Assembly: GCA_012295275.1 (NCBI GenBank)
Contig: CM022672.1
Coordinates: forward strand, 17,112,001 to 17,176,000
Length of the DNA stretch: 64,000 nucleotides
From: Chrysomallon squamiferum
Lineage: Eukaryota; Animalia; Mollusca
Reading direction: 5' to 3'
Shown here: positions 1-58,910 of the stretch, one piece after another
Position numbering within the stretch: position 1 is the first letter of the stretch
Layout of the letters: every line of letters starts with the position of its first letter
The notes under the pieces: model-generated
Told to the model about the DNA's origin: nothing
Databases searched by the model: none
The model's input: the letters and a program-made list of their open reading frames with translations, nothing else
Program-made: the position numbers and the translations under genes

Positions 1-222
1 CAATCGTCCCTGAAGCTTCGTTCATACCAACTGCAAACGTAACATTTTCGATGGAACTTGACTGGAAATCTTCTGTATCAGTTGCAGTACCTGATGTAGC
101 AGTTAACTGAACTGTTACTGCTGGAGAATTAGATGCTGTGTTTGATCTCACCAGTGTGAATGTTGCAGAGCCAGCACTCTCAGGTACAGATATTGTTACA
201 GATTTAAATTTAATGAGTGGCA
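1..222 (-). CDS. Gene A exon 4: Calx-beta repeat N-half (C9-type), truncated by window
   Basis: ttttccag|TG CCA CTC ATT AAA; PLIKFKSVTISVPESAGSATFTLVR; 2 differences in 222 nt versus gene C 47325-47546. Confidence 0.9.
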
Positions 223-58600: not shown

Positions 58601-58910
58601 ACAAGAGAGACGACTATGTCGAAACTATGTCCCCCGTACCATGTTCTCTCCAAATTATTTTCTTCATGTGTTATCGTGCTATAAACGAGACATATAACTG
58701 AAAATGGCGTCACTGAAAAAGTAGAGTCAGTCCTATAGATGTAAATGATAATGTGACTCAGTATTGATTTGTAAATTTGATTTCAGCTGATGATAGTAAA
58801 TTAAAAAAAAAATAAATAAATAAATAAATAAACTCACGCAAGCTGTTCACGCAGACTACAGATGTTAGACACATCGTGAGAAAGACATATCCAGACCATC
58901 TGACATCCAT
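34458..58910 (-). CDS. Gene C: type I membrane precursor, signal peptide-(Calx-beta)14-EGF2-ZP-RRKR-TM; 38 coding exons, 6210 nt, about 2069 aa
   Basis: All 38 exons have AG/GT ends and chain in frame by length and phase, and I found no stop. Calx-beta motifs (V.E..G.V.V.V.R, TA..DY, F..G, I.DD / E..E.F.V / I.DND), two 6-Cys EGFs, 4-Cys ZP-N (C..C, FqGkVY, CG, VQY, C), furin site and TM. Confidence 0.9.
35112..35229 (-). CDS. Gene C ZP C-terminal exon with furin site RRKR (35197-35208)
   Basis: PASCSSNRRKRSADQYGDKTVEYVFKVSDPAGDRVLAND. Confidence 0.9.
35721..35901 (-). CDS. Gene C ZP-C exon
   Basis: CFKDVAGIMSP...FEFRPPKFKNSDDVRIKVVAKLCPKNDITPCNL. Confidence 0.88.
36131..36215 (-). CDS. Gene C ZP-C exon
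   Basis: FGALLVVDLTIDNNVESDPIVITIVEN; 85 nt. Confidence 0.85.
36483..36628 (-). CDS. Gene C ZP linker/ZP-C exon
   Basis: ADTVQASAQGHLNPFDLGVTKDGAAVSSGTPIRMGEKLMVVLTVNQGS; 146 nt. Confidence 0.85.
37036..37187 (-). CDS. Gene C ZP-N exon 2
   Basis: DNILRIYRLIYVQYNSQFQAAYDEFVRARCYFD; 152 nt. Confidence 0.88.
37958..38169 (-). CDS. Gene C ZP-N exon 1
   Basis: KVICGENQMAIQIDPIGNFQGKVYAYGYEDTC...DTNCG; 212 nt. Confidence 0.9.
38722..38853 (-). CDS. Gene C EGF-like exon 2
   Basis: PCTKTSCSEHGTCVAVDGKAKCYCDAGYEDTEKC. Confidence 0.92.
39236..39370 (-). CDS. Gene C EGF-like exon 1
   Basis: YDCRRPGQKPCSNGAVCNDKGICECNALDPPRGGYKC. Confidence 0.92.
39799..39901 (-). CDS. Gene C Calx-beta repeat 14 C-half
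   Basis: KEEHTETFNVSIVDDTDKFNTGVKEVTAQILDDD; 103 nt. Confidence 0.87.
40392..40621 (-). CDS. Gene C Calx-beta repeat 14 N-half
   Basis: PTISLETPSPTYESLGPLVLTGTRTNG...TALAGKDY...LKDD; 230 nt. Confidence 0.9.
41184..41289 (-). CDS. Gene C Calx-beta repeat 13 C-half
   Basis: KDEIDETFTLTLVP...TITIVDND; 106 nt. Confidence 0.87.
41357..41411. repeat. (GT)n microsatellite
   Basis: Direct reading. Confidence 0.95.
42034..42260 (-). CDS. Gene C Calx-beta repeat 13 N-half
   Basis: SNFTFTSATYKSDESANVVISISR...IPIIDDN; 227 nt. Confidence 0.9.
42680..42785 (-). CDS. Gene C Calx-beta repeat 12 C-half
   Basis: IDEPEENFIIEF...VRIKDND; 106 nt. Confidence 0.87.
43308..43546 (-). CDS. Gene C Calx-beta repeat 12 N-half
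   Basis: SEVQFKTDLESVTEGETCLIELLR...GTASTSDY...INIVDDN; 239 nt. Confidence 0.9.
44633..44735 (-). CDS. Gene C Calx-beta repeat 11 C-half
   Basis: IVERNEIVSLFIINSPDYKVGTISETLVTVEDND; 103 nt. Confidence 0.87.
44919..45157 (-). CDS. Gene C Calx-beta repeat 11 N-half
   Basis: STFEFRDSKYTVTEGGTLTVTVDR...TIKDDN; 239 nt. Confidence 0.9.
45465..45570 (-). CDS. Gene C Calx-beta repeat 10 C-half
   Basis: IDETDEDFTITIKE...IIIDND; 106 nt. Confidence 0.87.
46491..46723 (-). CDS. Gene C Calx-beta repeat 10 N-half
   Basis: TKIEFVETSYNKTEDVGDFNVTVKR...AGPNDY...HIEDDK; 233 nt. Confidence 0.9.
47018..47117 (-). CDS. Gene C Calx-beta repeat 9 C-half
   Basis: LDENDESFTISIKENNEVVQAGDNLTVTITDDD; 100 nt. Confidence 0.87.
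47308..47546 (-). CDS. Gene C Calx-beta repeat 9 N-half
   Basis: PLIKFKSVTISVPESAGSATFTLVR...GTATDTEDF...DILDDA; 239 nt. Confidence 0.9.
48362..48464 (-). CDS. Gene C Calx-beta repeat 8 C-half
   Basis: QNEPKETLLVTIE...HIIDDD; 103 nt. Confidence 0.87.
48737..48975. repeat. Intronic minisatellite, about 42 bp unit, about 6 copies
   Basis: aaatgtagaaatgattacagtttgtaaacattgaacaaatac repeated. Confidence 0.88.
49789..50030 (-). CDS. Gene C Calx-beta repeat 8 N-half
   Basis: SKVHFEGPDDISVSENDMSITNLTVVR...GATDNDF...KVRDDN; 242 nt. Confidence 0.9.
50280..50379 (-). CDS. Gene C Calx-beta repeat 7 C-half
   Basis: IVENNETVIVK...TITIVDND; 100 nt. Confidence 0.87.
50618..50841 (-). CDS. Gene C Calx-beta repeat 7 N-half (not in ORF track)
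   Basis: SKIEFGEDLSLTEGNSKSLTITR...GTATNSDF...TFPEG...TTDDT; 224 nt. Confidence 0.9.
51172..51277 (-). CDS. Gene C Calx-beta repeat 6 C-half
   Basis: IHEPDEFLELKMP...LTVKDND; 106 nt. Confidence 0.87.
51647..51891 (-). CDS. Gene C Calx-beta repeat 6 N-half
   Basis: SQVQWDSTSLTKTEGDPEITLNVSR...VFAKGE...IIVDDK; 245 nt. Confidence 0.9.
52151..52247 (-). CDS. Gene C Calx-beta repeat 5 C-half
   Basis: IDESSEMFYLMF...ITINDND; 97 nt. Confidence 0.87.
52738..52976 (-). CDS. Gene C Calx-beta repeat 5 N-half
   Basis: PLFEFVTGEMVVNESAGSVTVSV...TATEDTDY...EIIDDG; 239 nt. Confidence 0.9.
53141..53243 (-). CDS. Gene C Calx-beta repeat 4 C-half
   Basis: LFEPDETFTVRLVDVDIYILGTTKSTEITIKNDE; 103 nt. Confidence 0.87.
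54106..54362 (-). CDS. Gene C Calx-beta repeat 4 N-half
   Basis: STITTKKLSQVVDEDDGTVSVAIVR...GTATANDDY...IKQDD; 257 nt. Confidence 0.9.
54546..54651 (-). CDS. Gene C Calx-beta repeat 3 C-half
   Basis: LEESSENFEVSIKPDPAY...VRIYDDE; 106 nt. Confidence 0.87.
54987..55225 (-). CDS. Gene C Calx-beta repeat 3 N-half (hypervariable type)
   Basis: PEFYMKKKLVTVREKYGKVNVTVIR...TATSADY...IIDDS; 239 nt. Confidence 0.9.
56096..56192 (-). CDS. Gene C Calx-beta repeat 2 C-half
   Basis: LYEGLETFVVTLTP...YAINDND; 97 nt. Confidence 0.87.
56780..56889. repeat. (GA)n microsatellite
   Basis: Direct reading. Confidence 0.95.
56935..57167 (-). CDS. Gene C Calx-beta repeat 2 N-half
   Basis: PTFSLQLGSATEG...STAENGTDY...VMIIDDT; 233 nt. 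Confidence 0.9.
57403..57460. repeat. Poly(T) tract
   Basis: Direct reading. Confidence 0.95.
57611..57713 (-). CDS. Gene C Calx-beta repeat 1 C-half
   Basis: LDETDETFEINILPDPAYELGDKNKTTVTIKRSD; 103 nt. Confidence 0.87.
58191..58411 (-). CDS. Gene C Calx-beta repeat 1 N-half
   Basis: IVRFVTPPTMVVEEG...SSAADI...FSIKDDS; 221 nt. Confidence 0.88.
58838..58910 (-). CDS. Gene C first coding exon: signal peptide
   Basis: tttttatag|cATG; MDVRWSGYVFLTMCLTSVVCVNSL; C|GTGAGT phase 1. Confidence 0.87.

Follow-up and report, generated by a model that had tools for sequence, protein, structure and literature searches.

A tandem gene cluster of Chrysomallon squamiferum that joins Calx-beta-like repeats to an EGF2-ZP core

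The DNA analysed here, referred to as the window, is a 64,000-nt stretch of the Chrysomallon squamiferum contig CM022672.1 (positions 17,112,001-17,176,000; GC content about 29%) that carries three related genes, C, B and A, on the minus strand. Gene C is an intact, spliced gene that encodes a signal peptide, a Calx-beta-like array, two EGF domains, a predicted ZP module, the basic motif RRKR and a transmembrane (TM) helix. This combination adds to the ZP family an arrangement not met with in the literature searched, in which a self-assembly module would be joined to as many as 14 units of calcium-binding type. The original prediction, made from the letters of the window alone, was of three same-strand paralogs with homologous signal exons, and such exons, each encoding MDVRW, are indeed found on the minus strand with their first bases at 58910, 23530 and 4292.

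Structure and splicing of gene C

Gene C (58910-34458) is made up of 38 coding exons separated by 37 introns, all of them GT-AG, and encodes 2069 residues without an internal stop. This open model agrees with the predicted order of 14 Calx-beta-like repeats, two EGF domains, ZP module, RRKR and TM helix. Each repeat is split between two exons, the a-exon of 221-257 nt and the b-exon of 97-106 nt, with intron phases of 1-0-1 throughout, and whole repeats can therefore be gained or removed in frame. The RRKR at residue 1962 is the only R-x-K/R-R motif in the whole protein, and is located between the ZP module and the TM helix (about residue 2018).

Splicing of gene C is evident in contigs from four public runs of two studies (X10, X11, X13 and X14, taken as RNA from their spliced contigs), which skip its introns in the compared region, 34400-54399, a region that starts after the first three repeats. 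Of 36 joints in total, 15 were listed, and 13 of these have CT..AC at predicted introns, including the joints between Calx14b and EGF1, EGF2 and ZP, and ZP and TM; of the other two, one is as long as the EGF1-EGF2 intron, its cut being shifted, and one corresponds to no predicted intron. A single 2243-nt contig holds repeats 5-9 in spliced register. The contigs cover gene C piecewise, none spanning the whole gene, and position 37958 was chosen as the donor for the first ZP exon after its spliced joint had been seen. Nevertheless, Calx, EGF, ZP and TM exons are joined at predicted introns, which bears out the expectation that the Calx exons are spliced to the EGF-ZP exons. The 14 repeats share a mean identity of 26% (range 16-36%) and are spliced in independent runs, which rules out an assembly artefact as the source of the array.

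The features of gene C, all on the minus strand, are as follows.

34458..58910, gene C: signal, 14 Calx-beta-like repeats, two EGF, ZP, RRKR, TM, short tail
58838..58910, signal-peptide exon (MDVRW), from exon homology and hydropathy
39799..58411, repeats 1-14 overall, from exon model, Pfam and hidden Markov model (HMM)
Repeat 1: a-exon 58411-58191, b-exon 57713-57611
Repeat 2: a-exon 57167-56935, b-exon 56192-56096
Repeat 3: a-exon 55225-54987, b-exon 54651-54546
Repeat 4: a-exon 54362-54106, b-exon 53243-53141
Repeat 5: a-exon 52976-52738, b-exon 52247-52151 (spliced contigs)
Repeat 6: a-exon 51891-51647, b-exon 51277-51172 (spliced contigs)
Repeat 7: a-exon 50841-50618, b-exon 50379-50280 (spliced contigs)
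Repeat 8: a-exon 50030-49789, b-exon 48464-48362 (spliced contigs)
Repeat 9: a-exon 47546-47308, b-exon 47117-47018 (spliced contigs)
Repeat 10: a-exon 46723-46491, b-exon 45570-45465
Repeat 11: a-exon 45157-44919, b-exon 44735-44633
Repeat 12: a-exon 43546-43308, b-exon 42785-42680 (spliced contigs)
Repeat 13: a-exon 42260-42034, b-exon 41289-41184 (spliced contigs)
Repeat 14: a-exon 40621-40392, b-exon 39901-39799 (spliced contigs)
38722..39370, EGF1 (39370-39236) and EGF2 (38853-38722), six Cys each
35112..38169, ZP module, six exons with eight Cys
38169-37958 and 37187-37036, ZP-N exons
36628-36483, 36215-36131, 35901-35721 and 35229-35112 (ZP-C), remaining ZP exons
About 35208-35197, RRKR, in exon 35229-35112, followed by the hydrophobic-patch strand
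34458..34687, last exon: spacer, TM helix (residues ~2018-2045), short cytoplasmic tail, stop

Unpaired Cys residues are located at 1288, in repeat 12, and at 2011, in the juxtamembrane spacer; the one at 2011 is also present in gene B.

Domain assignments and relatives

All of the repeats in the window align with common motifs. The Pfam Calx-beta profile (PF03160) matches 13 of the 19 a-exon translations at E<=0.1, seven of them at or above the gathering score, and finds no match in the other six, an a-exon holding only about two thirds of a Calx-beta domain. D, E or N is kept at 123 of the 126 calcium-ligand-like positions of the C repeats, whose spacing is that of the ligand set listed for CBD1 of scallop Sbp9 (PMC6244088), and the isoelectric point of the array is 4.1. 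The Pfam matches and the acidic ligand-like positions uphold the predicted Calx-beta assignment, and the C repeats are likely to be units of calcium-binding type. An HMM built from the 14 C repeats found 39 exon frames on the minus strand (28 in C, eight in B and three in A), together with three weak ones on the plus strand (1513 frames scanned in the window), as against none of 1489 frames in the reversed window used as a null; the matches in C are circular, those in B and A and the reversed-window null are not.

EGF2 scores 25.2 bits, over the Pfam cut-off, and EGF1 matches at E 0.01. The predicted ZP module is divergent but holds. No ZP exon reaches the Pfam cut-off alone, the best match of any single exon being to CUT_N (E 0.0085), and PDB sequence searches with two ZP exons, one Calx exon and a profile of the ZP region returned nothing significant. 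However, the eight Cys are in place, and the Atlas features of the first C ZP exon match ZP-N/CUT_N clusters at 0.96, with a recognition of 2269 that falls below the 2300 bar. Further support comes through P0009 (Gigantopelta LOC121376918), a protein of 584 residues with 36% identity to C that consists of a signal, one Calx-like repeat, two EGF, ZP, basic site and TM. For PF00100, two of its Atlas structure rows reach the required bar, its top Atlas feature match (0.85) is the cluster of molluscan EGF-like domain-containing protein 2, and a Foldseek search with its model has ZP-C chains in the first four places (E 1.4e-3 to 5.8e-3); compared with betaglycan ZP-C, the model gives a Z of 7.6 and a root-mean-square deviation of 4.2 over 146 aligned positions. 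These lines of evidence converge, partly indirectly, and lend moderate support to the ZP assignment of gene C.

P0009 is, together with P0003 (Gigantopelta aegis XP_041361980.1; 36% identity over C residues 1574-2050, E 6e-85), which carries a repeat fragment, the nearest named relative of gene C; both proteins are uncharacterised, and in both the repeat sequence is followed by EGF2, ZP, a basic site and a TM. The repeat of P0009 best matches C3 (E 1e-11), and its architecture shows that at least two molluscs have this layout, the number of repeats ranging from 1 to 14. The first ZP exon, used as a query, had five matches, namely two ENA fragments (70 and 61%), P0003, P0005 and P0004, the last a repeat protein matched over 17 residues and dropped as chance; the same exon found no homologue among longer proteins. 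The P0003 region, searched against proteins of 859-2450 residues, yielded none of 3935 candidates, which counts weakly against long relatives. A ZP gene in the supplement of PMC7142155 turned out to be an SRCR-ZP copy of DMBT1. In P0005 and P0008 (Gigantopelta XP_041362569-72), the EGF2-ZP-basic site arrangement is accompanied by PAN domains instead of Calx-beta, and, judging from these proteins, one EGF2-ZP core bears different N-terminal arms within the Gigantopelta genome.

The known proteins closest in layout are the molluscan EGFZP/EGFL proteins (LUSP-17, PfuEGFZP), which have a signal-EGF2-ZP-furin-TM organisation, are often encoded in tandem, are expressed in the mantle and have a ZP that binds shell proteins, in a group, the lophotrochozoans, where shuffling of EGF-ZP domains is repeated and common (PMC9290575). 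Gene C resembles them in its signal, two EGF domains, eight-Cys ZP, furin site, TM and tandem copies, and is likely to be a member of the EGFZP clade. Unlike these proteins, in which EGF directly follows the signal, the family described here has 1 to 14 Calx-beta-like repeats intervening (14 in C), and the word 'calx' was not found in the one supplement of PMC9290575 that was searched. The proposal that the combination is uncharacterised thus has to be narrowed, in that the EGF2-ZP core had already been described (PMC9290575), as had Calx-beta with EGF in scallop, while no description of a Calx-beta array joined to EGF2-ZP came up in a literature search made mostly without subscription papers; the accessible parts of PMC13361971, PMC11788884 and PMC5460417 likewise hold no Calx-beta-ZP link.

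Two other systems resemble the Calx-beta part of C. The scallop byssal EC/Sbp9 proteins combine EGF and Calx-beta (PMC6244088, PMC9168380) and are, like C, molluscan secreted proteins with varying repeat numbers and an acidic ligand pattern; they differ in having many EGF and 1-5 Calx-beta domains, with ZP not reported in the text seen, and in their long EGF arrays with a PCGGPC motif, where C has two EGF and PCGGPC is not seen in its translation. Sbp9 is probably a separate fusion, because it is described as scallop-specific. The sponge aggregation factors, too, have Calx-beta arrays, genes that lie in clusters and a turnover of domains, but carry Wreath and VW domains without ZP and have introns nearly all of phase 1, whereas C alternates 1-0 and ends in EGF-ZP-TM (PMC5400394).

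A putative filament and its alternatives

We give an even chance to gene C encoding a relative of the molluscan EGF-ZP matrix proteins with a long calcium-binding arm, acting at the skin or mantle epithelium. After the precursor has reached the apical membrane, cleavage of the furin type at RRKR would free it of the hydrophobic patch and the anchor, and the ZP module would go on to polymerise in the manner of uromodulin. The subunits would each bear a rod of 14 acidic Ig-like domains, which at ~4.5 nm per domain would measure about 60 nm, and Ca2+ from seawater would stiffen and cross-link the rods. The likeliest setting would be the organic layer that the epithelium of skin or mantle deposits at sites where shell, periostracum or other hard parts form. 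The family itself may have originated by addition of exon-bounded Calx-beta units before EGF2-ZP, and the common introns suggest that copies lost or swapped internal repeats through unequal crossing-over. If the protein does polymerise, it would offer a design, open to experiment, for an extracellular brush loaded with calcium, and would be a candidate for the way in which molluscan epithelia order their matrix on surfaces that mineralise or are exposed to microbes.

Uromodulin and GP2 themselves have a glycosylphosphatidylinositol anchor and a short arm. They share with C the EGF-ZP-cleavage-anchor logic for which they are used as the mechanistic model, but lack Calx-beta, and their ZP part has no sequence match to C; polymerisation of ZP proteins follows loss of the propeptide (PMC7737619). 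Short EGF-ZP proteins are present in the shells of two peltospirids (PMC11871041).

Several points weigh against a polymerising matrix protein. Some ZP proteins, such as betaglycan and endoglin, do not polymerise. P0009 has a poor fold model (pLDDT, the predicted local distance difference test, of 44), with ZP-N unmodelled, and an unrelated Ig fold reaches the same Z of 7.6 as the best ZP-C match of the model, that to betaglycan. P0005, the EGF-like domain-containing protein 2 of Gigantopelta, is only 30% identical to C. The ZP proteins of the peltospirid proteome are short, with ZP from residue ~100, and 'calx' has no matches in the readable part of the shell and sclerite proteome supplement (PMC11871041).

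Comparison of the copies bears on a different role for the same filament. The C-B comparison gives an omega of 0.05 for the EGF pair, 0.45 for ZP-N, 0.68 for ZP-C and 0.5-0.7 for three repeats. The outermost common repeat (C3, B1 and A1) is 31-39% identical between copies, while the adjoining intron blocks, compared over their alignable parts only, are 72-83% identical; omega is 2.4 for C3-B1 (p 0.008, or about 0.10 after correction for 12 tests) and 0.93 for C3-A1 and 1.39 for B1-A1, neither significant. These values hint at fast change at the distal end of the array, as would be expected if the filament were a uromodulin-like coat or decoy facing microbes in mucus or on gill and skin surfaces, in which the outermost repeats would form a rapidly changing surface for recognition. 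Consistent with such a role, the clustered Calx-beta genes of sponge aggregation factors show rapid domain turnover (PMC5400394) and uromodulin sheets capture bacteria (PMC7737619). However, omega exceeds 1 at p<0.05 in only one of the 12 tests, a result lost on correction, one of the genes compared is decaying and the intron contrast is confined to alignable parts, and we consider this role unlikely.

A membrane-tethered adhesion or linker protein, neither released nor polymerised, would bridge the distance between the cell and the cuticle or matrix, resembling the Calx-beta arrays of ADGRV1 and FREM or the Dumpy-type ZP anchors of insects. Both the type I layout with its long Calx-beta rod and the Atlas neighbours, which include Dumpy-type and Calx-beta matrix proteins (all <0.9), would suit a tether of this kind. 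It is nonetheless a rather improbable one, as the basic site before the TM is kept in C, B, P0003 and P0009, and the cytoplasmic tail of C is ~25 residues long without a signalling domain. More doubtful still is an egg-coat or egg-capsule protein similar to abalone VERL/VEZP, with the repeat arm binding sperm. A repeat array before ZP, tandem copies and a broken copy do fit the histories of egg-coat genes (PMC13361971), but the VEZP family is separate from EGFZP (PMC9290575), the VERL repeats are ZP-N rather than Calx-beta, and the nearest look-alike cluster is of EGF-ZP type.

Returning to the epithelial matrix protein, its broadest extension would be that peltospirid vent snails and their kin possess a bottle-brush ZP polymer in which repeat number (one in Gigantopelta, four to 14 in the window) sets the length of a Calx-beta arm stiffened by calcium and the outermost domains diversify under selection, serving to template mineral or sort microbes and convergent with Sbp9 and the sponge factors. 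We regard this extension as speculative and unlikely to hold.

Decay and repeat turnover in genes B and A

The close copies of gene C show gain and loss of repeats at the level of exons. Their features, all on the minus strand, are as follows.

12968..23530, gene B: signal, four repeats, two EGF, ZP, RRKR, TM; broken in this assembly
20840..20935 (about 20932-20840), remnant of the repeat-2 b-exon of B, AG acceptor lost, ~10 nt shorter than its C4 counterpart
16863-16861, in-frame TAG in B, at the start of ZP-N
15071-15069, in-frame TAA in B, at the start of ZP-C
1..4292, gene A, 5' part: signal exon 4292-4226, repeat 1540-1299/1006-907, a-exon 222-1; runs off the window

The exon series predicted for B is present, with its four repeats, two EGF, ZP, RRKR and TM, but B is not an intact gene, given the TAG, the TAA and the lost acceptor. 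At the site of the TAA, contigs of three other runs have a sense codon instead: in X2 it is in the only covering contig, in X7 it accounts for 33.9 of 128.5 of the summed depth, and in X10 it lies in a 353-nt spliced contig that differs from B by 6 letters. The stop is therefore also seen in a DNA run independent of this assembly, and low-depth transcripts come from an intact B-like allele or paralogue. In both X2 and X7 the contigs over B sum to a greater depth than those over the flanking DNA, although this is not a copy number. B has either decayed or segregates as a null allele.

The repeats of B are nearest to C3, C4, C9 and C14 (38, 61, 80 and 79% identity), and its introns match those of C across the C4-to-C9 and C9-to-C14 gaps. 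The simplest reading of these matches is that B lost C5-8 and C10-13, because the C repeats are far older than the split between B and C. Gene A, proposed as a third paralog of the (Calx-beta)n-EGF2-ZP type, is supported by its signal exon, a complete repeat and a second, partial one, while the EGF-ZP-TM end would lie beyond the window. The a-exon of A at 222-1 and that of C9 are 99% identical, and over ~700 bp, intron included, the identity is 92%, a likeness that reads as a recent exchange. The exons of A have no contig cover in the two spliced-type runs compared, which is evidence neither way. The variable repeat number of the original prediction consequently holds at the DNA level (14 in C, four in B, one in P0009 of Gigantopelta), but functional arms of differing length are not established, because the window has one intact, one broken and one cut gene.

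An Rfam comparison gave no match. Both intergenic spacers contain a non-coding element of 1.3-1.6 kb, present in three copies (9332-10957, 29136-30401 and 30488-32076) that are 72-87% identical; it may be a mobile element that contributed to the duplications. Further intergenic blocks in common are found at 8249-9332 and 26758-27919, and as an inverted pair at 11059-11985 and 27686-28726, and tandem units of ~107 bp lie directly downstream of the B stop (12026-12889). Minisatellites of 42 bp are located in the C8 intron (48730-48977) and upstream of the C signal exon (58930-59266), with related sequence upstream of B. Also upstream of the two genes are blocks with 70-75% identity, at 24055-25102 for B and 59607-61016 for C, which are candidates for a promoter or a non-coding first exon.

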